Assembly (NCBI GenBank): GCA_965238275.1
Contig: OZ250186.1
Coordinates: 1,088,001 to 1,152,000 of the forward strand
Length of the DNA: 64,000 nt
Origin: Nitrosopumilus sp.
GTDB taxonomy: Archaea; Thermoproteota; Nitrososphaeria; Nitrososphaerales; Nitrosopumilaceae
Reading direction: 5' to 3'
Part shown: piece by piece, positions 16,161 to 34,935 of the stretch
How the letters are laid out: every line of letters begins with the position of its first letter
Position numbering within the stretch: position 1 is the first letter of the stretch
Made by a program: the position numbers and the translations under genes
The notes under the pieces: model-generated
The model's input: only the letters and a program-made list of their open reading frames with translations
The model's database searches: none
What the model was told of the DNA's origin: nothing

Positions 16161-16623
16161 GATAGTGCTTGCAGAACTCTCACCTAGCGTGGCAAACGCC
16201 GTGATGCTGAAGCTCACCAGTCGCGGAATCATAAAACAGGTGAATGAAAAACCGGCAAAATACGCCCTAAGGGCGCCCGTCCCGGCATCCCCGAACGGCC
16301 TCGTAGGCATAGACCGGCCTTACAAAAACAGCATGATGGACGCCAATCCGGGAAACCGCATGATAGGCCTTCTCGTGTCAATCGGCGGCATAGAGGAACG
16401 TCTTGGAAAGGTTTGGCCCGGGTGCAAAATGATCTCGGCAGAGCAGGTGTATTACCCGTACTATGACGTGCGGTACGAGATGTCTGACGGCGGCAAGAGG
16501 AACGAGATGATAGACGGCATCACGGGCAACCCGCAAAAATACCTGGCAGAAGTCATGTCAGAAGCCACGGCGGAATCTGCTGCGGATACAGGCAACAGCG
16601 ATTTGCCACCAGGGCGGTCCTGA
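16161..16623 (+). pseudogene. C-terminal fragment of a larger protein (wHTH plus YYPYY...IDGITG tail), 5' part lost at the IS66 end
   Basis: The frame is open from the IS boundary; the tail resembles C-termini of archaeal HerA-like ATPases (inference). Confidence 0.55.
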
Positions 16624-16709
16624 CAGGCTCTTCAAAAACGGTTCTTGCCTCAAGCCTGCCTGCTTGGCGCGTGCCGGTACGGCGCGTTTGAGTGTGGTAG
16701 TAGGCGCGG

Positions 16710-16928
16710 CTATGGGCCTGGATAGCCAAGGTACGGGCTTGAAGTGTCGCAGTCATTGCACCACCCGTAGCATCCTTCTTCTTCCGTATGGTATTGCCTG
16801 CCGCAATAAACGCACAGGCCGTTTTCCCTGCGCCTGGCCCATTCTTCATCGCAATTATCATGCGTGTGGTGAAATTTGTCTGATTCTTCTTTGGACAACT
16901 CCCTGCCGCAATATGCACATCCTGCCAT
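16710..16928 (-). CDS. Double zinc-finger microprotein, family member 2
   Basis: CAYC...HDNCDEEWARR...CVYCG...CNDC...PYLGY. Confidence 0.8.
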   Translation of the reverse strand: MAGCAYCGRELSKEESDKFHHTHDNCDEEWARRRENGLCVYCGRQYHTEEEGCYGWCNDCDTSSPYLGYPGP

Positions 16929-17129
16929 GCTGCAAAAACACGTGGATGGCATAAGGAGAAAATCAAATGCCCGGTTGCGTGGCCGCGCCGCATGAAACCG
17001 GGATCGCAACGGCTGCCCGCGACGCTGCGTAAAACCAAATGCCGCTTTTATCAGATTGACGGCATCATGCCGTGGAGAAGCAATGCGAACCAACAGTACC
17101 TTTATTTCATTGACATACGTATCAATAGT

Positions 17130-17300
17130 ATGGGGACAGATGAAGAGATCGAATGCATAAAAAACGAGATGCGTGAAGTGGCCACGAATGCTATGTCAAT
17201 TGCCAAAGACGGCGAAACAAAAGAGGATTTGGAAAATGTAAAATCCCAAACCGAGGAGCTGGCACGATTGGGTAACAAGTTAAAACAAGCTGTGGAGTAA
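17130..17300 (+). CDS. Acidic helical-hairpin peptide A of cassette 1 (56 aa)
   Basis: MGTDEEIECIKNEMREVA...KLKQAVE; TTTATTT about 25 bp upstream. Confidence 0.7.
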   Translation: MGTDEEIECIKNEMREVATNAMSIAKDGETKEDLENVKSQTEELARLGNKLKQAVE

Positions 17301-17304
17301 CACC

Positions 17305-17459
17305 ATGGCTGAAACAGAACGATTTAGAGAAGTACTACAGCATGTATATTCCCTCCTTAACGGCTTGTAAATGAATACTTGGCCAGTGGCGGCGTCAGGG
17401 GCAATATCGACTTTATCTCGCAACTTATAGACGAAATATTGAGGTTGTTGGGGTTATGA
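17305..17459 (+). pseudogene. Helical peptide B of cassette 1, frameshifted near 17363
   Basis: MAETERFREVLQHVYSLLNG / LVNEYLASGGVRGNIDFISQLIDEILRLLGL; the stop overlaps the next ATG (ATGA). Confidence 0.6.
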
Positions 17460-17878
17460 GGCTGCTTGCGTATGTGGATCTTGGCGCACTGGTGTTCTGC
17501 ATCGTTTCACTGGGCGTGATTGTATGGGATGTATATTCGCATGACTGGGCATGGGACACATACCACCCGATATGGATTACCATACTTGTCGGCATAGGAG
17601 CGTTCTGGATGTTCTTCATCATATCCTCATGGCCCAAACCTGCCACGCAGTTTCTTGTAACAAGATCCTGGTTTGCCCTGGGGGGTGCCGGGCTTGGCTG
17701 GTTTTATGCCTTGGGGCTTGTCGCAGTCATGGTGAACCACTATACTCCTGATGCCGTTTTTTTGATCGGGTGTGTTGGCGCTCTCCTCACCAATGCACGG
17801 GCAGTCATACCTGAAACGTTCTCTGTCATTGTATTTTTGCAAAACAGACGCAAGTACAAGTTTGAGTTTGAAAGATAA
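17456..17878 (+). CDS. 4-TM membrane protein, paralog of 32497-32907
   Basis: Four hydrophobic segments; WPKP...SWFALGGAG...NARAVIP. Confidence 0.8.
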   Translation: MRLLAYVDLGALVFCIVSLGVIVWDVYSHDWAWDTYHPIWITILVGIGAFWMFFIISSWPKPATQFLVTRSWFALGGAGLGWFYALGLVAVMVNHYTPDAVFLIGCVGALLTNARAVIPETFSVIVFLQNRRKYKFEFER

Positions 17879-17882
17879 CTCT

Positions 17883-17928
17883 TGTGTTGGTAAATTAGGT
17901 GATCAGGCCGGTAGATTTTACCAGCACC
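17883..17928. repeat. Degenerate 46-bp palindromic MITE
   Basis: GTGTTGGTAAATTAGGTGATC...TTTTACCAGCACC. Confidence 0.55.
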
Positions 17929-18050
17929 CTTCAATTTGCGGATTTTGTTGCGTACGCGGCATAAGGGGCTTAATCACGATCCGTGAAGTCTTTAGCGAAG
18001 GCGCGGCGCTAAACCAAGTGCCGCTTTTATCAGATTGACGGCGTCATGCC

Positions 18051-18134
18051 ATGGAGAAACAGTGCGACATCTGCTGGTACAGGTATGACCGCGAGGCGCG
18101 CCGTTCGTGTCCCAACTGCGGGGAAACCAGTTAG
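18051..18134 (+). CDS. 27-aa CPxCG zinc-ribbon microprotein (not in the ORF track)
   Basis: MEKQCDICWYRYDREARRSCPNCGETS; CTTTTAT TATA-like box at 18024-18030. Confidence 0.65.
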   Translation: MEKQCDICWYRYDREARRSCPNCGETS

Positions 18135-18170
18135 TTTCTGCTCCTTTTATGTCATCATGCGTCTTGTATC

Positions 18171-18329
18171 ATGCCCCCTGTCCTGCTGCTGGTAAACGAA
18201 CTCAAATGCGAATTCTGCAAGCATTCCCTGTTTTATGACGCGATTGAATTCAAGCAGATGGTTGATGCCCACAGCGCGTGGGAGGAACGCGGGTGTCCTG
18301 CGTGCGGCATGAAATCATCGTACGGCTAA
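18171..18329 (+). CDS. 52-aa CPxCG zinc-ribbon microprotein (not in the ORF track)
   Basis: CEFC ... CPACG; CTTTTAT at 18144-18150. Confidence 0.65.
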   Translation: MPPVLLLVNELKCEFCKHSLFYDAIEFKQMVDAHSAWEERGCPACGMKSSYG

Positions 18330-18407
18330 ACCCGTTTCGTGTGGATTTGACTGTGCCTGAATGCCGATTCAACATAACCCCTTTTATTTGATTCATTCTT
18401 GCCTTTC

Positions 18408-21400
18408 ATGCCAAACCGCCAAACAAGCAAGTTCAGGAAGAGAAGCGGCACGGTAGTCGGGTTCGACCCCGACAAGATAAGGCGCGTCATACAGATGGCG
18501 CTGACTGCAGACGGAAAGGAAGACGAATCCCTGGCCACGTCGTTTACCGCGCAGGTAGTGGAGAGGCTGGAATCCGAAGGCCAGGAGATGCAGTCCTCCG
18601 AGCACGTCCAGGATCTCGTCGAACTGGTTTTGATAGACAACGGGTACAGCGGAACCGCCAAGTCGCTCATCATACATCGTTACGAAAACCGCAAGATCAA
18701 GGACGAGAAGAAGACTCTCCTGAACATACAGACGCTTGATCCCGTGTCCAAGAAATTCGGGCTGAACAGCCTGCGCGTGCTGGCCTCAAGATGCCTGATG
18801 AAAAACCCGAACGGCGACGTGATAGAGACGCCGGCGCAGTGCCTGGAACGGGTCGCAACCGGCGTGGGGCTGGCAGACATGCTGTATTCGCAAGACACGT
18901 TTGACGTGGACGGCGGACACGAACAGGATGTAACGGAGGCGCGGGCGTACCTGAAAAAACTCGACGCGTTTGACAACAAGTTTTACATCGGCAAATACTA
19001 TTTGAACAAGTACCATTTTCGCTCCCTGATCAACCACTACGTCAGGCTGTGCGACGGCGGCCACATGAAAGTCTCGTTCAAGGGGGTGCTGACCATGCTG
19101 GCGCAGAAGAAATTCGCCCACCTGGAGTCGACAATACAACGGTATTACGACGTCATGGAGGCGCAGGACTTCCTTCCAAACTCGCCTACGCTGATGAATG
19201 CCGGCGGCAAGCTGGGCCAGTTGTCAGCGTGCTTCGTGCTGGACGTCGGGGACAACCTTGGCGACATCATGGACACGGCCAGCCATACGGCAAAGATATT
19301 CCAGTCCGGCGGCGGAGTCGGGATCAACTACTCCAAGATAAGGCAGGAAGGCGAGATGGTGGCGTCCACGTTCGGCGTCGCGTCCGGCCCGGTTTCATTC
19401 ATGAACATAATCAATACGGTGACCGAGGTGGTAAAGCAAGGCGGGAAGCGGCGCGGTGCCAACATGGGCATCATGGAGGTCTGGCACCCGGACATCGAGA
19501 AGTTCATCACCAAAAAGACCGAACCTGGCGAATTGGAGAACTTTAACGTCAGCGTCGGCATCTGGGAGGATCTTTGGGAGGCGCTGAAGAACGGCGACGA
19601 ATACTACATGCTAAGGGACCCGCGGGACCAGCAAGTTGCCGGCAGGATCAACCTGCACCACCTCATGGACATCATATCGCATTCGGCATGGAAATCGGGC
19701 GAGCCCGGGCTGCTGTTCTTTGACCGCGTCAACCAGTACAACGTGTTTGCCAAAGCAAGGGGCGGTCCGCTAAGGACGACCAACCCGTGCGTGACGGGCG
19801 ATACGCTCGTGTCGACGCGTGACGGGCTGCAGCGAATCGAAAGCCTTTGGGAATCGCAGAAAGACATCGAGGTGGCAGTGGATGGCAGAATGGGCGGAAA
19901 GACGTTCAGGCGAGCGCCAAAAGTGATTGCAAGCGGCATCAAGGACGTCTGGCGGCTTGTAACGCGGGAAGGATATGAAGTCAGGCTGACGCGGGATCAC
20001 CGCGTCATGACGGACCGTGGATGGGTGGCGGCATCTGATCTCGACGGCGGTGACATGATACATATCATGAACCGCAAGGGCGGGTTTGGCGATGCCGGCT
20101 CGTACGAGATTGGAATGATTCTAGGGTGGCTGGTAGGGGATGGTACGTTGAAGACAGAAAGGGTGGTGTTGCCGTTCTTCGGGGAGAAAAAGGAACTGGC
20201 CCCGAAGTTTGCCCAGATGATGGAGATGGTGGTGCCTGCGGGCGTAGGCAAGAAAAAATACTATTCCATAAGCGTGTGTGAAATAAAGGGACGGGACGAG
20301 GTGCGCGTCAGCTCCGCGAGGTTTTTGAAGATTGCAGCGCAATACGGGCTCAGGTCTGGGCACAAGAATTTGGTGCCCGAGCAGGTGTTCCAGGGTACAG
20401 AAGGGATGCAGAAGGGATTTTTGAGGGCATTGTTCTCTGCAGACGGGCATATTAACAAGAGCGGCGGCATGACAGTGCGGCTTACTTCAATCTCGCACGG
20501 CATGTTGGTTGATGTCCAGCGCCTGCTCCTGAATTTTGGGATAGCCAGCAGGATATACAAGGACAGGCGTCAGGCAGGAACGCGCAACCTTCCAAATGGC
20601 AAGGGCGGGCTGTCGCAATACCATTGTAAGGCATGTCATGATTTGGCGATAAGCAAGGACAATGTATGCAGGTTTGCCACAGAGATAGGTTTTCTTACAA
20701 GGAAAAAACAGGACCGTCTTCTTGCCGACTTGGGTGCCTACACGAATGGGCCGAAAAAAGAGGGATTCGTGACTAGGTTTCAAGAACTTGTCCATGAGGG
20801 AGAGGAGCAGGTGTTTGACATTGTGGAACCAGAGACTCATTCATTTATTGGTAACTCATATGTTATGCACAATTGCGGTGAACAGAATTTATATCCATAT
20901 GAATCCTGTAACTTAGGATCTATCAACGTCTCCAACATGACAAAGGACGGCAAATTCGACTGGGAACGGTACGAGGCGCTGATAAGGATGTGCGCAAGAT
21001 TCCTGGACTGCATCATAGACGTCAACGAATACCCAATACCGGAGATTGAAACGGCGAGCATAGAGAGCCGCCGCACCGGCCTGGGCGTAATGGGTGTGGC
21101 TGACCTGCTGTTCAAGCTGGGAATCCCGTACAACTCCAAGCGCGGGTACGAACTGCAGGACAGGCTTGCAGAGGCCATTTCGTATTTTTCAATGGACGAG
21201 AGCGTCGAGATTGCAAAGGAGCGCGGGCCGTTCCCGCTGTGCTCAAAATCCGAATACCCAGACGGCAAGATCCCGATATCAGGGTACTATGAAAAGACCG
21301 GCCACAGGCACGACTGGAACGGGCTGATAGAACGGATCAAGGAACACGGCATACGCAACGTCCTCACGACCACCGTGGCTCCCACGGGCTCGCTTGGAAT

Positions 21401-22097
21401 GATTGCAGAATGCTCAAACGGCATGGAGCCGGTCTTTGCCATAGCGTACGAAAAACACGTCGCGGTGGGCCAATTCGTCTATACGAATGATTTCGTAAAA
21501 AAGACGCTGAAGTCAGAGGGGCGTTACACAAGCGAATTGGCGCAAAAGATAGCGGACAACGGCGGCTCGCTGCGCGGGATCGCCAAAATCCCGGCCAAGT
21601 ACCGCAACCTGTTCGTCACGGCCATGGACCTGCACTGGGCTGACCACATCATGGCGCAGGCGACGTGGCAAAACTGGATAGGAAACGCCATTTCCAAGAC
21701 GATAAACATGCCGCACGACGCCTCTCCGGATGACGTCAAATCCGCATACGTGCTTGCACATGAACTAGGCGTGAAAGGAATAACCGTGTACCGTGACGGC
21801 TCAAGGCACGCCCAGGTGATGCACAAGCCAGGCGACGAGTCATGTTCGGTTCCAACCATGGCACCAAGCAAGTACGTCGTGGAATACGCAAAAAGCAACA
21901 TCAAGACAAAATACGTGCAGGAGCAGCTTAACGGGTTTGCAGGCGCTGTTACCAGGAAGGTGCTAAAGGCGGACGTCCGCCCACCTGCTGCCAAGGAGGA
22001 ACGAGATCTCTGTCCCACATGCAACAGCTCGTTGACGTTTTCTGAAGGCTGCGGGATGTGCGTAGAGTGTGGGTATAGCGCGTGTTCGTCAGGATAA
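18408..22097 (+). CDS. nrdJ: Class II (adenosylcobalamin-dependent) ribonucleotide reductase with ATP cone and intein
   Basis: FLPNSPTLMNAG, QLSACFV, QGGKRRGANM, TNP/CGEQ, VAPTGS, KGITVYRDGSR, and C-terminal CPTC...CVECGYSAC. Confidence 0.96.
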   Translation: MPNRQTSKFRKRSGTVVGFDPDKIRRVIQMALTADGKEDESLATSFTAQVVERLESEGQEMQSSEHVQDLVELVLIDNGYSGTAKSLIIHRYENRKIKDEKKTLLNIQTLDPVSKKFGLNSLRVLASRCLMKNPNGDVIETPAQCLERVATGVGLADMLYSQDTFDVDGGHEQDVTEARAYLKKLDAFDNKFYIGKYYLNKYHFRSLINHYVRLCDGGHMKVSFKGVLTMLAQKKFAHLESTIQRYYDVMEAQDFLPNSPTLMNAGGKLGQLSACFVLDVGDNLGDIMDTASHTAKIFQSGGGVGINYSKIRQEGEMVASTFGVASGPVSFMNIINTVTEVVKQGGKRRGANMGIMEVWHPDIEKFITKKTEPGELENFNVSVGIWEDLWEALKNGDEYYMLRDPRDQQVAGRINLHHLMDIISHSAWKSGEPGLLFFDRVNQYNVFAKARGGPLRTTNPCVTGDTLVSTRDGLQRIESLWESQKDIEVAVDGRMGGKTFRRAPKVIASGIKDVWRLVTREGYEVRLTRDHRVMTDRGWVAASDLDGGDMIHIMNRKGGFGDAGSYEIGMILGWLVGDGTLKTERVVLPFFGEKKELAPKFAQMMEMVVPAGVGKKKYYSISVCEIKGRDEVRVSSARFLKIAAQYGLRSGHKNLVPEQVFQGTEGMQKGFLRALFSADGHINKSGGMTVRLTSISHGMLVDVQRLLLNFGIASRIYKDRRQAGTRNLPNGKGGLSQYHCKACHDLAISKDNVCRFATEIGFLTRKKQDRLLADLGAYTNGPKKEGFVTRFQELVHEGEEQVFDIVEPETHSFIGNSYVMHNCGEQNLYPYESCNLGSINVSNMTKDGKFDWERYEALIRMCARFLDCIIDVNEYPIPEIETASIESRRTGLGVMGVADLLFKLGIPYNSKRGYELQDRLAEAISYFSMDESVEIAKERGPFPLCSKSEYPDGKIPISGYYEKTGHRHDWNGLIERIKEHGIRNVLTTTVAPTGSLGMIAECSNGMEPVFAIAYEKHVAVGQFVYTNDFVKKTLKSEGRYTSELAQKIADNGGSLRGIAKIPAKYRNLFVTAMDLHWADHIMAQATWQNWIGNAISKTINMPHDASPDDVKSAYVLAHELGVKGITVYRDGSRHAQVMHKPGDESCSVPTMAPSKYVVEYAKSNIKTKYVQEQLNGFAGAVTRKVLKADVRPPAAKEERDLCPTCNSSLTFSEGCGMCVECGYSACSSG
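19788..20873 (+). mobile_element. 362-aa intein with LAGLIDADG homing endonuclease, inserted in the NP/CGE active-site motif
   Basis: Starts CVTGDT; block B LTRDHRV; LGWLVGDG and FLRALFSADG; ends VMHN followed by Cys. Confidence 0.95.
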
Positions 22098-22134
22098 GGT
22101 ACTCTGACTTATCGCTGACTGTTGGCAGTCCGGC

Positions 22135-22181
22135 GGCTTTGGTAAATTCTAGTGATCGGATCACCAAAATTTAACAGTGCC
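22135..22181. repeat. 47-bp palindromic MITE (IS6-like ends) just downstream of nrdJ
   Basis: GGCTTTGGTAAATTCTAGTGATCGGATCACCAAAATTTAACAGTGCC. Confidence 0.8.
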
Positions 22182-22459
22182 GCCGGCATTGCAAGAACCC
22201 GCCGATACGCAGATTCCGCGTAAATGATTGCGGGTTTCACGCGGGCCATGAAGGTTGCCTGGCGTGCTCCTAGTCTGGACATTCCAATTGTCGTTTTCTG
22301 TCGTTTAAAACGTCAATGTTCATTGATGCGGGTTGACAAGTCATTGGCGTACATTGACTTCACGAAATTTTTCTTCGTAGACGGCAAGCCGTTTGTTAAT
22401 GCTTTCAAGATCGCGTACGTTGCTGATGTCCATGTATTCGCGCAATTCCTCTTTGGTCA

Positions 22460-22870
22460 TCAATGACGCGTCGCTTCCTTTGTTCTTGCAACGTCATATG
22501 CGCGGCGTGCCATTTCCAGTCCCAGCGCGGCGTCGTCTGCCGTGCGTTTCCCGTTGCCCAACAACGACGAGTGTTCTTTCTGCCACAGCGCTACATTTGA
22601 AACGTTTAGTTCCGAAATTACGGACTTGTCGGGCAACAGGTCGCACAAGTCGTCTAAGTAACGCGTGAACGGAAACTTGATTCTGTCGCGCAACAGCATG
22701 GATTTTACCGATGCGTCAATGGCCCTGGACGCCAGAAGACACGCGTAGTCAAGCCTTTTGTTTTCTATGGCCCTGCCAATGTCATTGATCGTAGTTTTTG
22801 CCACGTCCAACCAGTAGGGTGCGAATGCCGCGACATCGAAACCGTCCATGCTGTCGTAATCCAACACCAT
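22460..22870 (-). CDS. HEPN-domain protein (C-terminal half of a split MNT-HEPN fusion)
   Basis: YACLLASRAIDASVKSML..IKFPFTRYLDDL..DDAALGLEMA; the usual TH(D/N)L and RY motifs are altered. Confidence 0.75.
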   Translation of the reverse strand: MVLDYDSMDGFDVAAFAPYWLDVAKTTINDIGRAIENKRLDYACLLASRAIDASVKSMLLRDRIKFPFTRYLDDLCDLLPDKSVISELNVSNVALWQKEHSSLLGNGKRTADDAALGLEMARRAYDVARTKEATRH

Positions 22871-22960
22871 AGACGTAATCCGTAATTAGTCGTTAGGCAC
22901 AAAGTGGGAATAGATGCTAGGCACGAAATGACCCAAAACTGCCTATTACGGATTATGTCT
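22871..22960. mobile_element. 90-bp IS5-type MITE with 3-bp TSD CAT
   Basis: AGACGTAATCCGTAAT ... ATTACGGATTATGTCT; CAT at 22868-22870 and 22961-22963. Confidence 0.92.
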
Positions 22961-23374
22961 CATGTCAAGGATCTTCAGACCTTCCGGTTTCACGTGCAAG
23001 AGTTTTCCTTCCCTGAACGCGTTGTATTCCGTCGTCCCGTACACGTTCACGCACCGTTTCATCGATTCGAGCGTTTCTGGTAACATTGTCGTTTTGATTA
23101 CTTCATTGCCGTCATCGTCAGTTATGGTCGGCCAAATACCGTCTTCCAATCGTTCCACCACATTCATAATGTCCAAATCACTGCGTTCTGTCGCGTCCCC
23201 CCTGGCCTGTGACCCGAACACAAGCACGGCCAGTGATTTTTCGGGAATCCCGCCGATGATTTCAGCCAATGCCGTCTTTGCCTTGCCGGTGCATTCCAGC
23301 TCGTTTACGTCATGCACGGCATGAAATGCCGTCTTTGCCGTAATGCCGCGTTGTCTTGTTTTTGCTCCCGCCAT
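22946..23374 (-). CDS. Minimal nucleotidyltransferase (MNT) domain; C-terminus supplied by the MITE
   Basis: VFGSQARGDATERSDLDI signature. Confidence 0.85.
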   Translation of the reverse strand: MAGAKTRQRGITAKTAFHAVHDVNELECTGKAKTALAEIIGGIPEKSLAVLVFGSQARGDATERSDLDIMNVVERLEDGIWPTITDDDGNEVIKTTMLPETLESMKRCVNVYGTTEYNAFREGKLLHVKPEGLKILDMRHNP

Positions 23375-23723
23375 GCCAAATATTGCAGTTTTTGTAAGTT
23401 ATAAGCATGGTTTATCGCGGCCTGGCGGACTCGGGGCAGAAAAGCGAACCGACGTTGACCGGCGAAACCATCGAGTCGCTTGTCCAGCATGCGTTTTAGG
23501 ACGTGCCGGTGGGGGCATGGTTCGTTGTCTTTTTTGAAAGGGGTTGGTTACAACAAACATGTCGTGCTTCAGGCATATCTTTGGAACAACCCGGGCAAGC
23601 CGAACTGCCGGTGAGGCGACAGCCACCCACCCCCGCATTCGCTGCATTGGTACAGAATGCCAGAATGCTTGCAGCCTGGCTCGTGTTTGAAACATTCCAT
23701 GCTTGGCACGCATGTCACGTAAT

Positions 23724-25320
23724 AGAAGATATGCGTAATCCGCCCATTTCGCCAACTCGGTCATAAAAAACCGGAAAAATACGGCCTAAAACTACTCGTG
23801 TCTGGCATGTGGCAAGTCCGTTCACCCCAAAATCCAAAATGACGTGCGCAGCCTTGCAGCACTTCATCGTGCCCTGAATTCTACTTGACCGGAGCTTGGG
23901 AGCAGGCCCTGTCCCAGTCTACTGACGTCTTCCACTGCCCCGGTGGTGGCGGGCCCTTTTCCATGCAGTCCCACAAAAGATTCAGGTTTACCAGCCCTGT
24001 GATCACGTTGAACTCCCTGTTGAACCCGGCTGCGTTGCCGTCGTACGGGTCGGTGAGGCGCGCGTAGCGCTTGAGCCTGCCTATCGTGTGCTCCACCAAC
24101 ACCCGGGTGGAGTTGATCCTGTGGTTGTGCTTTTTTTGCTCCGGCGTCAGCGGCGTGTCCCTGGTCTTCTTGTGCGGGATCTCCGGCGTGGTGCCGGGCA
24201 GGTGGTCTGCGATTCCCTGGTAGCCGCGGTCGACGAATGGGTGGCACCTGTCTGATTCTGGCAGGTCCGGATCGTGCATCGCCTTCTCCCACTTTCCAAA
24301 CGGCATGGGGCGTTCCTTGAGCAGCGTGATGTCGCCGACTGACCCGACGGTGCTTTTTGATATGCCGATCACCACCCCGTTCCGGTTGGTGTACACGTTG
24401 GTATTGTTGGTAAACTTTTTCTTCTTGCCGGAGTATTTCATGCGCCGGACTGACTTTACGGACGGGCGCTGTATGGGGCAGTGCGTGCCGTCTATGAAGA
24501 TCTCGCCCCCATCCGATCCGGGCACGATCTTCTTGAAATCTTCCCTGGTCGGGGCAGCAGCTACCTCCTCGGATATGTTGTCTGCCGTCGGAAGTATTCC
24601 TGCCAGCATCGCGTCCATCACAGGAAAGTACCGGGACACGGTGGACTGGTCTATCCCGAAGAACGCGGCAAGCGTTCCCTGCGTGATGTTTTCCTTTTTG
24701 TGCATCAGCGCCATGAGCAGCGCGTGCCTCAGGTGCAGCTTGCACCGGTTTCCGGGATCGGAGGCCCGGGATGCGTTATCGCAGAACAGCGGCATCTGGC
24801 CCGAATGCGTCAGAAACACCTTGGCCCGCTCCAGCATGTACCGGAACTGTTCCCCGTCTGCCAGCGTGGCATGGCGGAGCTTGTCCCCGTCGCGTATTAT
24901 GTCGTCTAGCACCTCTAGCAGATGCAGCGCGGGCCCCTTGCCGGGGTTCCAGCCATCGTCCCTGCTCTTCCACAGGCCGCGCTCAAGGCCCAGCTCCCTG
25001 TCTTTCTGCTCCAGCTTTTTGTCTTTCTGCTTTAGAATATTTTTTAGGCTTTTGTTTTCCTGCTCCAGCTTTTTGTCTTTCTGCTCCAGCTTTTTGTCTT
25101 TCTGCTTTAGAATATTTTTTAGGCTTTTGTTTTCCTGCTCCAGCTTTTTGTCTTTCTGCTCCAGCTTTTTGTCTTTCTGCTTTAGAATATTTTTTAGTCT
25201 TTTGTTTTCCTGCTGCAACTTGTATATGATCTGATCAGGCGAGTCTGGCATTTGATGTGAGACACGATCGTGCCTGATCTAAATTTATCGATGTGGACAG
25301 GGGGATTACGCATATTCTCT
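23724..25320 (-). mobile_element. IS5-family element with intact transposase 23881-25251
   Basis: TIR AGARRATATGCGTAATCC; TSD AAT; FIDGTH, VDRGYQG and RVLVEHTIGRLKRY motifs. Confidence 0.9.
25001..25215 (-). repeat. About three 75-bp tandem repeats encoding ENKSLKNILKQKDKKLEQKDKKLEQ
   Basis: Visible directly in the DNA and in the translation. Confidence 0.9.
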
Positions 25321-25557
25321 AATGGGCGGCACGTACAAAAAAAGAAAAAAGGTCGTACGCTGGCATCAATAATCCATCCAACAGCCGCATTCGGAAGGAA
25401 ACGTGCGCCTTACCTTCAGGCCGCAGTCTTGGCATTCGTAAACGCTTATCTCGGTGCCGCAATCCGAACAAGGGGTTGTCGTGGACACTCGTTCGGTGCC
25501 ACAGTCACAATCTGTCATTGCGCGGGGTGGAACGGTTTACGTAAAAGGGCATGCTGC

Positions 25558-25604
25558 ATCTCTGGTAAATTCTAGTGATCGGATCACCAAAATTTAACAG
25601 TGCC
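25558..25604. repeat. 47-bp palindromic MITE
   Basis: Nearly identical to 22135-22181. Confidence 0.8.
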
Positions 25605-25801
25605 AGTCCGGCAACACCGAGCATTTGATCTATCATTTGGTGGTCGCGCGTCGACGGTCTCTTCTTAGAAGCCCGAATAAGGTACGCCACACTCCTGCTT
25701 GACGACGGCCGCGCCTGCAGCCTTGTCCCATCCTTTCACCGTATTCGCTTTCGCCAAAAACAACAACTGACGGCAAACTTGTCTTTGCAGTGACTTTTTT
25801 T

Positions 25802-26386
25802 TCACTGCAAAGGCAATATTTGGGGCAAAACGCCGGATTTTGGGATATCTGCACGTGCAGCAGATTGGTTTGTGCCTGCGTCAATCTGGATCGCCTGCAG
25901 CCTCGCTTCTTGGGCCAATTCCGGAAATCTCCTGGCGATTTCGTTTAGTATGCGGTTCTTGATTATTGGATAGACATAGTGTCTGCCTGTCACGCCGTGC
26001 GTATATCCGAGCGCATCGTCATACGCGGTACATTCATGGCGCAGGTAATTGACCTTTTGCCTGTCGCTGCCACAGAGTTTCACGTATTCCGGGAAATCGT
26101 ACCTTAGATAAACCGATTCGGCCCACCGCGTGAGTCTGTGTATCTTGGTTCTCACGGCCTTTGCCGCCGCCTTCTTCCTTCTTGCATCAGGCACGTGTCT
26201 GGCAAACATTCCTGAATTTTCAGCCGCCTTGACCCGTTCGACTGCGTATAGTTTCATCTGCGGGCCGGATTTGTAGTGCGGGTTGTCAGCGTACTTGTCA
26301 GGCTCGCCAAGCAGCCTTTGTATCATTGCATTTGTCCAACCTCGCTTGCCTTTCAGGCCGGTTGGCGTGATGTATTGTTCTGCCAT
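25802..26386 (-). CDS. Basic hypothetical protein (RGWT...LGEPD...NPHY...MKLY motif, XPA C-terminal-like)
   Basis: Coding-like ORF; motif recalled from phage and bacterial hypothetical proteins; start chosen at MAEQY. Confidence 0.65.
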   Translation of the reverse strand: MAEQYITPTGLKGKRGWTNAMIQRLLGEPDKYADNPHYKSGPQMKLYAVERVKAAENSGMFARHVPDARRKKAAAKAVRTKIHRLTRWAESVYLRYDFPEYVKLCGSDRQKVNYLRHECTAYDDALGYTHGVTGRHYVYPIIKNRILNEIARRFPELAQEARLQAIQIDAGTNQSAARADIPKSGVLPQILPLQ

Positions 26387-26511
26387 GCAGCAATGCAAAC
26401 CTCCACGTATAAGCCCGGCAATCATGCGTATGGCGGGCTCTTCAAATAAGGTGATTTGACGCATATTGGTTGGATGAATTTTGTCCAAGAGTCATAATTT
26501 TGAAGAGGCAT

Positions 26512-28998
26512 TCAAGTCCGTATCCTGACGTCAATCGTGATGGGAACGTTTGAATCATTGTGAAGAGCAATCCTGCTTCCGACGATCACGTTGCACGAAT
26601 TTGATTTACTATACCAGTGATCATCGGGATCCTCGCACGTGTAATGGTAGCCCCTGCCGTCATATACATAGCCACTCACGTCAATCTCGGGCGGAAGCAC
26701 GTGCAACGCAAAGGCACCATTCTTAGCAGGCACCGAGAACGAGTATTGTACATCTCCTGTGTTGCATATAGTATATGGAATGAACCATCCTGGCCTTAAC
26801 GTGACGCTTGTTGTAAAGTCATAGTTGGCGCTGTCAGTGGTGCAGTTATTTGGAAACGACTGCCGCGCGACATCGGTGGTTATGCTGCCGTCGATCGTGA
26901 TGGAAACGTCACGATCGTTGTGTATGACTATCGAGCTGCCGGCACGCACGTAACATACGCCTGGTTTGCTGTACCAGCGCTTGTCGGGATCCTCGCATGG
27001 GTAGTGATAACCCTTGCCGTCTTTTACGTAGTCCCCCACGTCGGTCTCAGGTGGAAGCACGTACAGCGAGATGCCTGCGTTTCTGTCTGGCACCGAGAAC
27101 GAGTATTGCACGGTGCCCGTGTTGCATATTGTGTACCATCTATACCAACCGGGTTTTAACTCGTGGTTTTGGAGGTTGATGTTGTAGCGCTTGTCGTTGG
27201 TGTCACAATCGTTTGGGAATGACCGTGTTGTTGGCAGTGGGCGTGGATCCGGTGCCGTGACGGGCGGGGAGTCGGTCTGTCCGCCTTCTGCGAACTTGGA
27301 CTTGTATTCAACCCGGTTGTTTGGGTTGGGAAACCCGTCCAAACCATAGAGGTGCGTCACTCCTGCCAAGTTAAGACTTGACGGCACGTAGTTCTTACTA
27401 GCAGAATCACATGTAGGTATGCCGTTCTCCACACTGCACATCATGTCTCCTGGCTTGTTGAACGTGTGCCCCAATCCAACTGCGTGGATGAATTCGTGTG
27501 CAGCAGTACCGCTGACTTGATAATTAGAGTGTCGTCGATCACCTAACGTAGAACAGACTGTGGTGTTGATTGGTTCTGATTGGCTCGCGAGTGTCTGTGC
27601 CCAGCCAAAGGTTATACCGGAACCATCACGCAGACATCTTTCTTGGCGTTCTGCTGTAACAAGATTCACAATGACATCCGGCCTTGATTCAAACCGTTCT
27701 CCAGGCACCACCACGTCAAACGTTACGTCCCAGTTTCCACCATATTTTCCCTCAAGGCCTGTCGTCCACATCATAATGCCCTCTTGAACTGGAACTATGT
27801 GGCCTTTGACTTGATTGTATGAGTCTGGCTCTGGAATTATGGCAACGTGCGGGGGGCGATTAAAGCTGAGGGAGCGATACAACTCGATATATTCCGCATT
27901 ATCCGGGATGGTAGAGACGGGCGGACTGGGCGGAGGAGACGGATCCACGCGGCCAGATATGCGCAGAGGAAAGGTATCGCCGCACGTGGAACTGCACGTG
28001 GCCTGCCTGTCGTACCTGTCATCACCCTCAAAGACTGCAAAGATATCCACGGTGCTGTCAAAATCGGTATAATCCACAATCCAGTTTGCAGAAAAGCGCC
28101 CGTTTGATCCTACATAGCCAGTCGCGAGCAGTTCGTCCCTGCTGAAAGAATCTTCATCTTTGATGTGCACGACGATCCCTCCGGGATTCCCCCTGTCAAA
28201 ACCCAGCGTGCCAGAGAATGTCACGGTCTGGCCCACCTTTGCCGTGCTCGGAGGCGGATCTAGCGTTATGTCTCCCCCGATCTTGGTAACGTACATGTCT
28301 TGTATGCGCGAAGCATCGCGTCCATAGGACTGGTCGCCCTCGAATACGGCGCGTATCTCGCGCTCGTCCTCAAATCGGTCGACCTTGGCGATCCATGTTA
28401 TGTGGAACCGGCCGTACTGGTCTGTCGTGCCCGATTTAAGGTAGTCGTCTGGCCGAAATTCATCCTCGTCCTGTATGTACACCCTTTTCCCGGCAAGCGG
28501 TTGGCCGCCATGCGTAAGCGTTCCTGTGAATGTGACGGCATCGCCTGCATAAACATGTCCTGGGATCGGATTCAGAATCACCGCCGTGCCCCTGCGCTCG
28601 AAGACGTCCATCTCTTGGTTTCGCGTCCTGTCTTTTTTATGGTGCGAATCCCCTTCGAATATGGCATATATCTCAAACTCCGTCTCGATCGAGTCGGCTC
28701 TGACGTGCCAGTCTATGGAGAACCTTCCGTTTTGGTCAGTCCATCCACGCGTGAGAACCTCGTCAGGCCGCAAAAATTTGTCTTCCTGTATGTACACCCT
28801 TTTCCCGGCAAGCGGACTCCCGTCAGCATACAGCACACCCGTAAACGTGACGGTTTGGCCTTCGTAGGCACGTTCGGGGATCGGATCCAGCGTCAGGGAA
28901 GTGTCTGCGAACGCCGGCGGCGCCAGAGACGCGATCATGGTAACTGCCACGATCCCTGGCAGGATTTTCAGTAAGTACTTGTCAATGGGACCATGCAT
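26512..28998 (-). CDS. Secreted metzincin (matrixin-like) metalloprotease with three Ig-like repeats and two C-terminal Cys-containing repeats
   Basis: Signal peptide; repeated VTFTG.L..GRF...W...FEGD; HEFIHAVGLGH with Met-turn; duplicated SFPN.C...YTICNTG module. Confidence 0.88.
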   Translation of the reverse strand: MHGPIDKYLLKILPGIVAVTMIASLAPPAFADTSLTLDPIPERAYEGQTVTFTGVLYADGSPLAGKRVYIQEDKFLRPDEVLTRGWTDQNGRFSIDWHVRADSIETEFEIYAIFEGDSHHKKDRTRNQEMDVFERRGTAVILNPIPGHVYAGDAVTFTGTLTHGGQPLAGKRVYIQDEDEFRPDDYLKSGTTDQYGRFHITWIAKVDRFEDEREIRAVFEGDQSYGRDASRIQDMYVTKIGGDITLDPPPSTAKVGQTVTFSGTLGFDRGNPGGIVVHIKDEDSFSRDELLATGYVGSNGRFSANWIVDYTDFDSTVDIFAVFEGDDRYDRQATCSSTCGDTFPLRISGRVDPSPPPSPPVSTIPDNAEYIELYRSLSFNRPPHVAIIPEPDSYNQVKGHIVPVQEGIMMWTTGLEGKYGGNWDVTFDVVVPGERFESRPDVIVNLVTAERQERCLRDGSGITFGWAQTLASQSEPINTTVCSTLGDRRHSNYQVSGTAAHEFIHAVGLGHTFNKPGDMMCSVENGIPTCDSASKNYVPSSLNLAGVTHLYGLDGFPNPNNRVEYKSKFAEGGQTDSPPVTAPDPRPLPTTRSFPNDCDTNDKRYNINLQNHELKPGWYRWYTICNTGTVQYSFSVPDRNAGISLYVLPPETDVGDYVKDGKGYHYPCEDPDKRWYSKPGVCYVRAGSSIVIHNDRDVSITIDGSITTDVARQSFPNNCTTDSANYDFTTSVTLRPGWFIPYTICNTGDVQYSFSVPAKNGAFALHVLPPEIDVSGYVYDGRGYHYTCEDPDDHWYSKSNSCNVIVGSRIALHNDSNVPITIDVRIRT

Positions 28999-29289
28999 TC
29001 CACGAACACAACCAACGTCTTCATTGCATGATTGCTATGTGTATGTTATCTAAAGATTGTGTTAAGTAGGATGATTGTTTTTTTATGAACTTGTATTCAT
29101 ATGGTTATCCACGTCATGAATACAGACGGCCGGTTCAAATGGGTGTTCTGGTGCGCGTTGGTTGGTCATGCCTGAATCTGGATCCATAATTTTGACCAGC
29201 AATAACTTGATTGTAAGCTCACTTTTGAACAGTTGATTCCGCAAGATCCTGGAGAATATCCGTATAGCTTACTTTCGAACAGCAGATAC

Positions 29290-29316
29290 GCCAGATCACA
29301 ATAATTGAACAGAACC
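29290..29316. repeat. Isolated IS6-like MITE right end
   Basis: GCCAGATCACAATAATTGAACAGAACC, compared with GCCAGATCACCAAAAATGAACAGTGCC at 6635-6661. Confidence 0.5.
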
Positions 29317-29401
29317 ACAATCCGGCGAAACCGCCCGAAGAATTAACAGAGTGGGGCACCATACACCATAAATAGCCATCAAGAAGAGCACAAATAGAAC
29401 T

Positions 29402-31213
29402 TTGAAAACAGACATTCTTACACCCAAAGATCTATTTGCAAAAGACGTACACTACATAATTCCACCCTTCCAGCGCCACTACGTTTGGTCCCAAGATGCA
29501 CAGTGGGAGCCCTTGTGGGAGGACGTCCGCAACGTGGCCGAAAACTATCTTGAAAAGATGGGACAGACACACGCAGACGAACGGGAGGCTTGGGGGCGCT
29601 CTAGGCCTCACTTTCTAGGCGCCATTGTCATACAACAGATCCCCACCACTGCAAAAGAAATTGATCAGCGAAATGTGATCGATGGGCAGCAAAGAGTGAC
29701 TACGTTGCAGCTTCTTTTGGATGCCATTCAGTGGATTTGTGAGGGTTCGGAATACCCATATCTCAATAAGACAGCAAAGCGTCTAGCCAAGTTTGTTGTC
29801 AACGACCAGGAACTTTTTGAGGGCAATCACATTTTCAAGCTTCGACCGACCAAAAGCGACGAGGATGCATTCAGGCACGCTATGGATAATGGACTTGCGA
29901 CAGATAATTTTAGTGAATCACCCATTGTAAAGGCTCATGAGTTTTTCCAACGTCAGATTACAGCGTGGCTTGAGTATGGAAAAGAACCAATAGAAAACAG
30001 AATCGATGCACTTGTAGAGACAACAACTGCAATGCTCCAAATAGTTGTAATTGATCTAGATGGACAAGACGATCCAAACATAATATTTGAAACATTAAAC
30101 GCACGTGGTACGCCTCTAGAACAATCTGATCTTATCAAGAATTTTGTATTCTCTCTATCAAGAGACTCAAAAAGTGATATCTGGGAGAATCTAAATGATA
30201 AATGGTGGAAAAAAGAGATCAGTCAGGGACGTCTTTATAGACCGCGCTTGGATATGATCTTCAACTACTGGCTCATGATGCGCAAGGGTGCAGAAGTACC
30301 ACCATCAAAGGTATTTGACGAGTTTCGCAAGCATGTAAATAAACAGGATATCCAACAGGTCATGTCTGAAATAAGGCAAGACTTTGCTGCCTATCGTATG
30401 TTCGAAGAATCCCAAGGGCGCAATCCTACAGAAAAATCATTTCACCGTCACATGACCATTATGCAGGCAGGCGTGATAACACCAGTGCTATTGCTGTTGT
30501 TATCTGACAAGGCAGGAACACACACAAGAGCCCTTGATGCATTGGAGAGTTTCTTAATACGCAGAATGATCTGCCGAGATACTACAAAAGACTACAATAG
30601 AATGATGCTGGAGCTTGCCAGTCAATTACGTAACACTAATCCGAACAAGGCAAGTGCCACCATCATCGAATTCCTTAGAGAACAGGAAGCAGATTCAAGA
30701 AAATGGCCAAGTGATGAGGAGATAGAGCACCATCTAGGACAATCCCCACTCTACAACTTGTTAACAAGAGGCAGATTGAGATTGGTGCTTGAGGGTATAG
30801 AGCGGCAATTAAGGTCATCAGGAAAGACCGAACAGTACGACTTTGGAGAAAAATTATCAATTGAGCATAGGATGCCTGTTGGCTGGAGATCGGCAGGGGC
30901 TCAGAACTGGCCACTTCCAGACGGAATCAGTGAAGACAGACGCGACACACTCATCAACTCAATCGGCAACCTCACACTAGTGACTCAGAAACTCAATTCT
31001 GCAATGTCTAATTCCCCTTGGAAACACAAACGTGGCGAGCTTGGAAAACACAGCATTCTCCTATTAAACAAAGAATTACCCCTCTCTTGGGCCGAAAAAG
31101 ACATCACTGCTAGGAGCCGTCGAATGGCACGCCTCGTATCAGAAAGATGGCCGGGCCCAAACTCCAAGAAATGGAATGACGCAGATATCCCAGTACCGAA
31201 TTCCGGCAGGTAA
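29402..31213 (+). CDS. gmrSD: DUF262-DUF1524 GmrSD-family type IV restriction endonuclease
   Basis: IPPFQRHYVW, IDGQQRVTT, IFETLNARG, SIEHRMP and IGNLTL..LNS motifs; lower GC than flanks. Confidence 0.9.
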   Translation: MKTDILTPKDLFAKDVHYIIPPFQRHYVWSQDAQWEPLWEDVRNVAENYLEKMGQTHADEREAWGRSRPHFLGAIVIQQIPTTAKEIDQRNVIDGQQRVTTLQLLLDAIQWICEGSEYPYLNKTAKRLAKFVVNDQELFEGNHIFKLRPTKSDEDAFRHAMDNGLATDNFSESPIVKAHEFFQRQITAWLEYGKEPIENRIDALVETTTAMLQIVVIDLDGQDDPNIIFETLNARGTPLEQSDLIKNFVFSLSRDSKSDIWENLNDKWWKKEISQGRLYRPRLDMIFNYWLMMRKGAEVPPSKVFDEFRKHVNKQDIQQVMSEIRQDFAAYRMFEESQGRNPTEKSFHRHMTIMQAGVITPVLLLLLSDKAGTHTRALDALESFLIRRMICRDTTKDYNRMMLELASQLRNTNPNKASATIIEFLREQEADSRKWPSDEEIEHHLGQSPLYNLLTRGRLRLVLEGIERQLRSSGKTEQYDFGEKLSIEHRMPVGWRSAGAQNWPLPDGISEDRRDTLINSIGNLTLVTQKLNSAMSNSPWKHKRGELGKHSILLLNKELPLSWAEKDITARSRRMARLVSERWPGPNSKKWNDADIPVPNSGR

Positions 31214-31217
31214 AAAA

Positions 31218-31404
31218 ATGCCTACAATATTTGACAATCTCCCCCCCCCCCGAATCACGCCTCTTGCCCGCTCTGCAAGATATGATGAAACTGTCCCACA
31301 AGGCAGATTTCTGTGTTGGATACATAAATCTCCGCGAGTGGGGGGGAGGACTGGCAGCTCATGTGGACCGTTGGGACGAGAACGAAGAATCATACCGCAT
31401 CCTG
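31218..31404 (+). pseudogene. N-terminal remnant of a PLD-domain / SNF2-type helicase gene, truncated by an IS end
   Basis: MPTIFDN...LLPAL...ADFCVGYINLR.W; frameshift in a C11 run; IS5-type TIR at 31405. Confidence 0.6.
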
Positions 31405-31610
31405 AGACATAATCTGTAATTGGGCATAACCCCACTTCTTGATGGCATCCAAGGACACGTGGACGTGGCGCGGGAAGATCTTTCTGGCCAGCGTAGACTT
31501 GTCGCTTTCGGCGATGCCCATAGTCGTGGCCATAGCAATCCGAACACTTGCGACTTGATCCGTAATTGGCAGTCAGGCACAAAGCATGAATTTCTAGGCA
31601 CGCTTGGACA
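31405..31610. mobile_element. Fragments of an IS5-type left end (31405) and a MITE (about 31558)
   Basis: AGACATAATCTGTAATTGGGCATAACC; ATCCGTAATTGGCAGTCAGGCACAAAG. Confidence 0.6.
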
Positions 31611-31755
31611 CGGCGTCGTCGTACATCGTGGAGAAGCTGCAGGACGCCGACGTGTGGACGTGCGAATGCAGGGACTTCATGGCCAAGCTCGTGAGGCACC
31701 AAGACAAGCGGTGCAAGCACACGGCAATCATGCGTAGTCGAAGTTGGTACGTATT

Positions 31756-31971
31756 TCAGCCGGTAAAGCAGTTTTCATAGCCTGCGTATGGTGGATTCGA
31801 GCCATCAAAGCAGTTTTTGCCCACAACGTATCCATACATCAATGGTTCTTCGCCACATACCGTGCAAAGCCGGAGGGACTTTCGCCTTTCATATTCTGCA
31901 AGACACAGGTAGTGTGAACTGTTGCCTGTTCCGTCCGGCACGTCCTTTCCACAAAAACCACAGCCCATCAC
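31756..31971 (-). CDS. Double zinc-finger microprotein, family member 3
   Basis: CGFC...HYLCLAEYERR...CTVCG...KNC...PYAGY. Confidence 0.8.
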   Translation of the reverse strand: MMGCGFCGKDVPDGTGNSSHYLCLAEYERRKSLRLCTVCGEEPLMYGYVVGKNCFDGSNPPYAGYENCFTG

Positions 31972-32076
31972 AATACAGTCTCCTGCATGGTATAAGGACT
32001 AACTACAAAGATATTCATGTCACTAAACAAACAAACAACTCTGAAAGATATTTCAAATTCTAAAAAATGGCAATGA

Positions 32077-32283
32077 CTAATAATTGAGAAAAGGGGATTG
32101 TCCGTCACATTGCTTACACCAAAAATTCCTGCCTGTTTCACGTTCTTTCCCGCACCGGACGCATTTCTTGCCGTCCATCCGTCTTTCAAATTCATTTTCG
32201 CATTTTTCATGGACGAGCCTGCCAAACGAAACATGATTGAATTCTTGCAGTTCCAAGTGACAATATCCACATGGGGTTGCCAT
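32077..32283 (-). CDS. Double zinc-finger microprotein, family member 4
   Basis: CGYC...HEKCENEFERR...CVRCG...CKQC...PFLNY; AT-rich promoter upstream. Confidence 0.8.
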   Translation of the reverse strand: MATPCGYCHLELQEFNHVSFGRLVHEKCENEFERRMDGKKCVRCGKERETGRNFWCKQCDGQSPFLNY

Positions 32284-32375
32284 GAATAATACGAATTTAT
32301 ATTATATTTAAATTTATTAAAAACGCGGGGCCGGGGTGTTTACGGTAGATAATTCTCCCCGGGACCGGTCGGTCG

Positions 32376-32405
32376 GTCTGTGGGTCACTGTAACTTTACA
32401 GTTCC
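32376..32405 (+). repeat. Second copy of the TnpB-associated element end
   Basis: GTCTGTGGGTCACTGTAACTTTACAGTTCC, compared with GTCGCGGGTCACCGTAACTTTACAGAGCC at 5418-5446. Confidence 0.65.
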
Positions 32406-32496
32406 GGCATTTCATAGAATACATTAATCTGTTAATTGCCGGTTTGTTCATTTGGCGGTTTTAAAAAGCCACACTGGCGTTCAAGCATTTGCCATG

Positions 32497-32907
32497 TCAA
32501 CATACACTTTCGCGGTCGCCAAGTGCGGTTCTTGTAGCTTTTATTGCCACGATCCAATCTGGAATGGTAAGCCGCAGGTTTGCGCACAACGCGATGCCCA
32601 TGGCTACAATTCCCAACGCTGTATAATCATCAGTCAGTACCGACAATGACAACCCAAGCCCGAGCAATATCGCGATGAAACTTACCCATCCTGCACCGAC
32701 CCAATCCCACAATGACGGTGTGCGGCGGTGGATTGGGACAGGATTTGGCCAGTATGCACGTAGTCGCAGTCCAAACGCTATCGACATGACCACCAACACG
32801 ATGAGCGTCAATTCATTCATGATCGTCAACCCGTCGATGAGAACCAATGGTATCCCGACCAGCATGGCTGCAAACAGTGCAAGATCATAGATACCCTTGG
32901 CGGTCAT
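32497..32907 (-). CDS. 4-TM membrane protein, paralog of 17456-17878
   Basis: WPNP...SLWDWVGAG...NLRLTIP. Confidence 0.8.
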   Translation of the reverse strand: MTAKGIYDLALFAAMLVGIPLVLIDGLTIMNELTLIVLVVMSIAFGLRLRAYWPNPVPIHRRTPSLWDWVGAGWVSFIAILLGLGLSLSVLTDDYTALGIVAMGIALCANLRLTIPDWIVAIKATRTALGDRESVC

Positions 32908-33062
32908 GGCAAACCACTTCCGAAATCCAACTCGCTGAGTTTTTCCAAGATCAGATTAATATATTCTAAAACATTTACTGGTATTTAGGCCTTGTTTAGA
33001 TTTTCAAGTAATAACACTCTAAGTTGATTTAAATAATTATCAATTTCATCTTTGGTTGTCAT
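32904..33062 (-). pseudogene. Helical peptide B of cassette 2, with an internal TAA
   Basis: MTTKDEIDNYLNQLRVLLLENLNKA*IPVNVLEYINLILEKLSELDFGSGLP; TAATG and ATGA overlaps with its neighbours. Confidence 0.6.
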
Positions 33063-33187
33063 TACTCTCCAACTTTGTCTTTCATTTGTAATAGCAGGTT
33101 CTTTTTTTCTTCGAGATCATCCGTAGATAACGCCTCATCTACCATGTCAATCAATTCCTTGACTGTCTCATTTTCATCCATGGGCAT
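33062..33187 (-). CDS. Acidic helical-hairpin peptide A of cassette 2 (41 aa, not in the ORF track)
   Basis: MPMDENETVKELIDMVDEALSTDDLEEKKNLLLQMKDKVGE; TTTTAATA upstream. Confidence 0.65.
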   Translation of the reverse strand: MPMDENETVKELIDMVDEALSTDDLEEKKNLLLQMKDKVGE

Positions 33188-33215
33188 TATTAGCAAATCT
33201 GATATTAAAATTTTT

Positions 33216-34919: not shown

Positions 34920-34935
34920 AAATTTTTCTGTGTAC

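Follow-up and report, generated by a model that had tools for sequence, protein, structure and literature searches.

We analysed a stretch of 64,000 nucleotides (nt) from Nitrosopumilus sp., an archaeon of the Nitrosopumilaceae (contig OZ250186.1, positions 1,088,001 to 1,152,000), hereafter the window, whose own numbering is used below unless another source is named. An earlier note, made from the letters of the window alone, had described two paralogous cassettes within it, each encoding a short acidic peptide (A), a second short peptide (B) and a protein with four transmembrane (TM) segments, with the B stop codon overlapping the TM start codon in an ATGA. Both the coordinates and this layout were found to be correct. 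The cassettes represent an undescribed and very rare small-gene module, of which one genome holds three diverged copies. The two copies in the window are composed as follows, the promoter-like box having been located by eye.

Cassette 1:
17101-17107, + strand, TATA-like box TTTATTT, centred 26 nt 5' of the A1 ATG
17130-17300, + strand, A1, acidic helical peptide of 56 amino acids (aa), isoelectric point (pI) 4.57
17305-17370, + strand, first piece of B1, 21 codons (helix 1) and then TAA at 17368-17370
17361-17459, + strand, second piece of B1, frame -1, loop and helix 2 in 32 open codons
17456-17878, + strand, TM1, 140-aa protein with four TM segments, its ATG overlapping the B1 stop (ATGA)

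Cassette 2:
33062-33187, - strand, A2, acidic and helical, 41 aa or, from the ATG at 33181, 39 aa, pI 4.17
32904-33062, - strand, B2, 52 codons, codon 26 (32987-32985) being an in-frame TAA
32497-32907, - strand, TM2, 136-aa protein with four TM segments, its ATG overlapping the B2 TGA (ATGA)

The genes of each cassette are closely packed. Only 4 nt separate the A1 stop from the B1 start, and in cassette 2 the A2 TAA and the B2 ATG share one base (TAATG, a gap of -1 nt). The TGA that ends the second piece of B1 occupies 17457-17459 within the ATGA at 17456-17459. Neither A nor B contains a TM or hydrophobic segment, and no leader motif is common to the three copies.

TM1 and TM2, each with four hydrophobic segments, are 23% identical and align by BLASTP with an E value of 0.012 over 65 residues; hhalign, given two rows per side, returned an E value of 7.9e-4 with a probability of just 25%. 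The motif pairs that had been matched by eye in the earlier note line up, with SWPKPA in a loop and NARAVIP in TM helix 4 of TM1 facing YWPNPV and NLRLTIP in TM2. A profile from both TM proteins, the check proposed in that note, was built together with their nearest database relatives and run over 1.84 billion representative proteins, returning an alignable family of nine at E <= 0.001: the two clusters of the window and seven others. TM1 belongs to a 91%-identical cluster of seven sequences, and a protein identical to TM2 is recorded on five contigs. All nine representatives are 130-152 aa long and align over their full length, and the seven further matches (130-138 aa) bridge TM1 and TM2. 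Residues found throughout the family are an Asp ending helix 1, an (S/Y)WPxP loop after helix 2 and A-x-(L/A)-R-x-x-x-P in helix 4, the Asp, Pro and Arg being invariant in the family alignments. We accept TM1 and TM2 as distant homologues.

In both window cassettes A and TM are open and B, the shortest gene (21% of the cassette), is broken. The frame break in B1 is confined to 17361-17369, the sole 9 nt in which both frames are open, and the TAA of B2 falls between the two helices of the predicted hairpin. The lesions lie at aligned codons ~22 (B1) and ~26 (B2), in each case between helix 1 and helix 2.

Independent sequences indicate that these lesions, which the earlier note had wished to see checked against reads, are real. 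Contigs of runs X1, X2 and X3, from two studies, cover at least 17285-18073 with no gaps and 0-1 differences; run X1 may be the source sample of the window. Because these contigs match without gaps, the B1 frame break is no artefact of this assembly. A contig of run X6, from a third study, is ~10% diverged and resembles the window solely over 17101-17873, beginning at the promoter box and ending shortly before the TM1 stop, where it shows 79 differences and a single gap (774 vs 773 letters). We infer that its extra base sits in 17361-17369, making B1 one open reading frame (ORF), because A1 and TM1 could not stay open with a one-base insertion or deletion and the relatives of TM1 are open. For cassette 2, a protein search with B2 (X at the stop) gave one match, P0030, an intact 52-aa protein of a relative that is 94% identical over its full length. 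P0030 has Gln at codon 26, a CAA/TAA difference from the window; otherwise it departs from B2 only downstream of the stop, at codons 28 and 46. Close relatives thus have B as a real gene of ~52 codons, and both window copies carry recent, simple lesions.

The same evidence bears on the idea that B is unbroken, being expressed by programmed frameshifting in copy 1 and by stop read-through in copy 2, or interrupted only through assembly errors. The near coincidence of the two interruptions between helix 1 and helix 2 would fit recoding. However, 17361-17369 contains no slippery heptamer, the relative has a plain Gln codon at the TAA position, the X6 contig is one letter longer over cassette 1, and independent contigs reproduce the window. 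We consider it hardly credible that B is intact in these copies.

The earlier note had taken the module to be paralogous and diversified, which our results support. A third, diverged copy lies in the same genome, 0.83 Mb from the window cassettes:

G000:C1:1952071-1952855 (L019 1127-1911), outside the window, third cassette copy, found by profile search with E 1e-14

Its first gene, A3, encodes an acidic peptide of 59-64 aa, and 2 nt separate the A3 stop from the next ORF. This 195-aa ORF joins in one frame an intact B of ~50 residues, a linker of 12 residues and a domain with four TM segments (TM3). The B3 domain has a B-like hairpin with a Ser-Gly-Gly loop as in B1, and an AlphaFold2 model of the fused protein, made from a 14-row alignment (mean pLDDT 74.9), places helices at residues 2-26 and 33-47, forming the hairpin, followed by four long helices. 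Hidden Markov models run over all stop-to-stop frames of the genome found no further copies of A or B.

The fusion bears directly on what B does. Because B is joined to the N terminus of TM in the third copy, it is likely to be a cytoplasmic subunit or domain of a membrane protein and not a secreted peptide, which argues that B and TM may work as one complex whose B part is cytoplasmic. Given this placement of B and the positive-inside pattern in the sequences, the cytoplasm is also the predicted location of the WPxP loop, of the basic C-terminal tail and of helix 4 at its Arg-Pro end.

This arrangement contradicts the function that the earlier note had offered as an example, in which A and B make up a two-peptide toxin whose toxic part has been lost, with TM as its immunity protein. 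Two small peptides do precede a small multi-pass membrane protein, and B has been knocked out twice with TM kept, both as such a system would have it. Against this, B is fused in frame to TM in the third copy. The peptides are also acidic (A1-A3 pI 4.05-4.57, B1-B3 pI 4.49-4.90, or 4.0-4.9 overall) and lack a hydrophobic segment or common leader motif, and Pfam scans of the window and of the third-copy surroundings found no peptidase-ABC exporter or modification gene among the scanned neighbours. We regard a toxin with membrane immunity as very unlikely. On the other option named in that note, a small signalling or anti-viral unit, our results weigh neither way.

The correspondence of A and B across cassettes was assessed by global alignment against 2000 shuffles, with the two B1 pieces joined by X at the break. 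Similarity was clearest between B1 and B3 (p 0.0005, z 4.3), followed by A1-A3 (p 0.012) and, marginally, B1-B2 (p 0.045); the values for B2-B3, A1-A2 and A2-A3 were p 0.07, p 0.11 and p 0.29. Gly-Gly is present in the B1 and B3 loops, but not in B2 or in any A. The VE or VGE ending that the earlier note had given for A holds for the window copies, but A3 ends in DTA, so this ending is not conserved. In Pfam, A1 drew just weak matches of coiled-coil type, all under the cut-offs. Co-fold predictions of A with B-TM scored 0.26 and 0.24 against a mark of 0.32, which counts neither for nor against binding. The equation of A with A and of B with B across the copies would thus rest mainly on position, size, charge and common operon structure.

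In a tree of 14 rows, for which copy 3 was cut down to its TM domain, TM2 pairs with the foreign proteins P0003 and P0004 (support 99/99). TM1 falls in its own cluster, TM3 forms a long branch by itself, and resolution is lacking at the deep forks. The three TM paralogues are therefore either old or separately acquired.

Relatives of the organism largely lack the family. Single-protein searches with TM1 and TM2 found it in 0 of 60 relatives, and the family profile, at E <= 1e-6, in none of 400 other genomes of the taxonomic family, 150 other species of the genus and 400 genomes of the phylum, these genome sets overlapping. Fourteen order-level matches (E 1.6e-5 to 6.6e-4, 19-25 bits), of which none passes E <= 1e-6, were treated as noise uninspected; 13 lie inside open frames of ~580-600 aa and one in a 46-aa frame with a stop. 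Scans of genome contigs and metagenome contigs for homologous loci yielded no confirmed case, and three scans of viral contigs gave no true match; their one hit, L020, was rejected as it spans phage head-region genes on the opposite strand. Searches of plasmids by tblastn with B-TM3 and P0019 returned no match.

Each copy is preceded by an A/T-rich box. Besides TTTATTT in cassette 1, a putative promoter of a leaderless A1-B1-TM1 transcript, boxes seen by eye lie at 33210-33202, 25 nt from the A2 ATG at 33181, and at L019 1110-1119, 27 nt from the A3 ATG at 1142. The presence of such a box 25-27 nt 5' of an A start codon in 3/3 copies suggests that all three cassettes may be transcribed leaderless from them.

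The flanks of the three cassettes differ. Cassette 1 is bracketed by a direct repeat that occurs just twice in the genome:

17023-17088, + strand, left copy, 66 nt, 88% identical to the right copy
18002-18067, + strand, right copy, overlapping a 27-aa zinc-ribbon ORF (18051-18134) at its start

The left copy contains truncated first codons of the zinc-ribbon gene that starts at 18051. The pair looks like an insertion or duplication scar. Low-depth contigs of three runs join 17022 to 18024 through 31 foreign letters, skipping cassette 1; this may reflect an empty-site variant or a look-alike locus, and the joint, whose shorter side has just 23 letters, was not relied on.

Cassette 2 abuts an insertion sequence (IS):

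33216-34922, + strand, multi-copy IS66-family element, transposase at 33361-34869 (Pfam DDE_Tnp_IS66)

The left end of this element (~33216) adjoins the A/T box preceding A2. Its other genomic copies start matching at 33195-33216, mostly at 33209-33216, its right-end repeat matches at 34876-34922, and read contigs break at 33215/33216. An X6 read joint of 31549 to 33215 was set aside, one side having just 30 letters and 33215 being the IS boundary.

The third cassette is bracketed by ~200-nt copies of a miniature inverted-repeat transposable element (MITE) at L019 801-1001 and 1926-2124. This MITE, which has 21-nt terminal inverted repeats, is present genome-wide in at least 11 near-full-length copies. 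Matches to its end motif also occur in the window at 9531-9571, 22136-22176 and 25560-25599, probably the ends of the parent IS. The third copy adjoins the same IS types as the window island. A zinc-ribbon ORF lies 460 nt upstream of it, and a plain ABC ATPase gene lies ~1.7 kb away, past the zinc-ribbon ORF and a MITE. A mobile-unit boundary common to the three copies was considered and rejected, the flanking repeats differing in kind and position.

The window as a whole is an island of IS elements, comprising two IS66-family types together with DDE_Tnp_1 and DDE_Tnp_4 elements, in which genes of defence type are also found. The neighbours of the cassettes include the following.

16710-16925, - strand, ZF1, double zinc-ribbon protein of ~71 aa, divergent from cassette 1
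32077-32283, - strand, ZF2, double zinc-ribbon protein of 68 aa, 213 nt 3' of TM2 on the same strand
31756-31971, - strand, ZF3, double zinc-ribbon protein of 71 aa, paralogue of ZF1 and ZF2
13887-16160 and 58069-60281, IS66-family element in two copies, inverted ends ~95 nt long, transposases of 609 and 605 aa
18399-22097, + strand, ribonucleotide reductase with ATP-cone, all-alpha and barrel domains and a LAGLIDADG intein
22460-22870 and 22946-23374, - strand, HEPN and nucleotidyltransferase pair, same island
29402-31213, + strand, GmrSD-family restriction enzyme, same island

The intein-carrying reductase gene thus stands between cassettes 1 and 2 with defence-type genes around it. The 609- and 605-aa transposases carry 21-nt tandem repeats in an N-terminal coiled coil; the transposase of the second IS66 type (33361-34869) is 31% identical to them and has a different 21-nt repeat, forming five tandem seven-residue units. 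A 152-aa ORF without a family match (16165-16623, + strand) begins 5 nt past an IS66 right end and may be a gene truncated by insertion. An 828-aa ORF at 26512-28998 (- strand), with transthyretin-like and bacterial Ig-like repeats and internal repeats of 315 nt, probably encodes a surface protein.

The zinc-finger genes beside both cassettes, pointed out in the earlier note, are true paralogues (E 1e-12 and 1e-7 among ZF1-ZF3). Weaker paralogues occur in the window at 1834-2106 and 3763-3966 (both - strand), within a direct duplication of ~1.9 kb (1362-2521 / 3208-4301), and elsewhere in the genome at 1990262-1990495 and 1179986-1180288. Because ZF1-ZF3 are oriented differently relative to the two cassettes, we keep them out of the unit and treat them as co-residents that may be partners of it without being proven components.

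Archaeal mobile elements typically encode small zinc-ribbon and membrane proteins, and the cassettes and zinc-ribbon genes could together be remnants of an integrated archaeal virus or plasmid, serving for example in superinfection exclusion or membrane remodelling. Paralogous zinc-ribbon genes beside both window cassettes and another near the third copy point in this direction, as do the repeats that flank the cassettes and a tree in which the three TM paralogues form no clade apart from foreign sequences. Yet the scanned neighbours include no integrase, capsid, replication or other hallmark gene, there were no PHROG matches and the viral-contig scans were without a true match, and the orientation of the zinc-finger genes is not constant. 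A viral or plasmid origin of this kind therefore seems unlikely to us, if far from negligible.

Comparison with known families agreed with the earlier note that this is no described system, searches of Pfam, NCBIfam, PHROGs, PADLOC and PDB sequences all being negative and fold searches giving generic helical bundles. Neither TM1 nor TM2 matched Pfam at E <= 1, and the 14 family members gave nothing at E <= 0.1 save two noise rows. In PHROGs v4 the TM proteins matched no family and the A peptides solely families of unknown function (E 0.002-0.09), and PADLOC-DB 2.0.0 gave no matches for the cassette proteins and just noise-level PtuB rows for ZF1 (E 0.045-0.096). The family profile found nothing among PDB sequences (best E 0.97); in the ESM Atlas the best score was 0.87, with no named cluster and recognition under the tool's mark. 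No Rfam family was found in 16000-34000. A full-text literature search, a weak basis for absence from print, returned nothing describing such a cassette.

Taken together, the A-B-TM unit is best explained as a rare, horizontally mobile accessory operon of three tightly coupled genes. As to what it does, we lean tentatively towards a mobile conflict-type module, resembling a toxin-antitoxin, abortive-infection or exclusion system, with B and TM as a membrane effector and A as its partner. Rarity, patchiness, location among IS elements, MITEs and defence genes, and tight gene coupling are what we count in its support. In such a module A would be a small, very acidic cytoplasmic helical protein acting as partner or inhibitor of B+TM; B, a cytoplasmic helical hairpin of 51-52 aa, would serve as a subunit of TM or, in one paralogue, as its N-terminal domain; and TM, a four-helix membrane protein of 130-140 aa, would form with B a membrane-perturbing effector. 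Truncation after helix 1 would remove helix 2 and uncouple TM translation from B, with ribosomes stopping 80-90 nt short of the TM start, which would probably lower TM output. Copies 1 and 2 might then be disarmed or decaying, and the fused third copy would be the sole complete one.

Several observations weigh against this assignment. The A-B-TM layout is read at the three copies of this genome, the seven distant homologues being known as proteins alone, and the B-TM fusion is known from a single gene. Similarity of A between cassettes is mostly non-significant, with BLASTP finding nothing between A1 and A3. No model of Pfam, NCBIfam, PHROG or PADLOC rises above noise for A, B-TM or TM, fold searches recover generic helical bundles only (best Foldseek E 0.4), and the best VIA-align Z of 10.2 compares with a helical-bundle background of ~13. 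The chance that one random lesion per cassette would strike B both times is ~0.04, a post hoc figure, and reasoning from context means guilt by association, in a genome where IS elements abound and pseudogenes may be frequent.

The main rival is neutral decay, in which an accessory membrane module without a conflict role (for example a small complex for stress, transport or regulation that mobile DNA carries) is being lost and the B lesions are ordinary pseudogenisation. IS elements, MITEs and truncated genes abound in genome and window alike, each lesion is a simple point event (a frame break of one base in B1, CAA/TAA in B2), no defence or toxin model matches, and B2 differs from its relative by two amino acids after the stop and none before it, as fits drift. 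On the other hand, both lesions struck the shortest gene, 21% of the cassette, about four aligned codons apart; A and TM stay open, with TM2 identical on five contigs; and such extreme rarity and patchiness would be unusual for a housekeeping-type function. Neutral decay is a possible outcome that we hold to be almost as likely as the conflict-type module, with the virus or plasmid remnant third.

A bolder version of the conflict-type module strikes us as improbable: a new archaeal class of conflict modules, moving as a unit of ~0.77 kb from promoter to stop, in which B helix 2 gates or triggers a membrane-permeabilising TM effector that A inhibits, the two independent B truncations being, instead of random decay, either convergent, selected disarming or a switch to a regulator consisting of helix 1 only.

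Looking forward, archaeal small proteins and small membrane proteins are largely unannotated, and, to our knowledge, tests of archaeal conflict systems that use membrane effectors are very few. One closed genome here offers three natural variants, split and broken twice and fused and intact once, and the natural fusion predicts which products bind each other. We note that natural null alleles of B, together with an intact allele in a close relative, make function testable by expressing a few short genes. Should the cassettes prove to be merely a decaying orphan operon, the analysis would still provide a clean annotation of three genes, two pseudogenes and one fusion.

Among known systems, the best-scoring fold comparison is with tetraspan proteins. 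Synaptogyrin (8a6m), the best Foldseek row, shares with the family an up-down four-helix membrane bundle of similar size (TM-score 0.39/0.45), but at E 0.4 and 14% identity the likeness is one of generic architecture, and nothing there corresponds to the cytoplasmic N-terminal hairpin or to A. Class IIb two-peptide bacteriocin loci encode cationic, membrane-active peptides with double-glycine-type leaders and a dedicated exporter. They resemble the cassettes in placing a small membrane protein after two small ORFs; the cassette peptides, however, are acidic and not cationic, lack a leader of the double-glycine type, and in one copy a peptide is fused to the membrane protein. TM resembles CidA/LrgA holin-like proteins in length (~130-140 aa), in having four TM helices and in its C-terminal tail, which is short and charged, but there is no profile match (Pfam LrgA) and no LrgB-like partner gene, and the host of the cassettes is an archaeon without murein. 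The general kind that we used for comparison is that of toxin-antitoxin and abortive-infection operons with small membrane effectors. The cassettes differ from these in having three genes, not two, an A without a recognisable DNA-binding domain, and no component that matches toxin, antitoxin or PADLOC models. They share with them a compact, coupled operon that opens with a small acidic protein and closes with a small multi-pass membrane protein, as well as a patchy, strain-specific and multi-copy occurrence in IS and defence islands and a proneness to inactivation.

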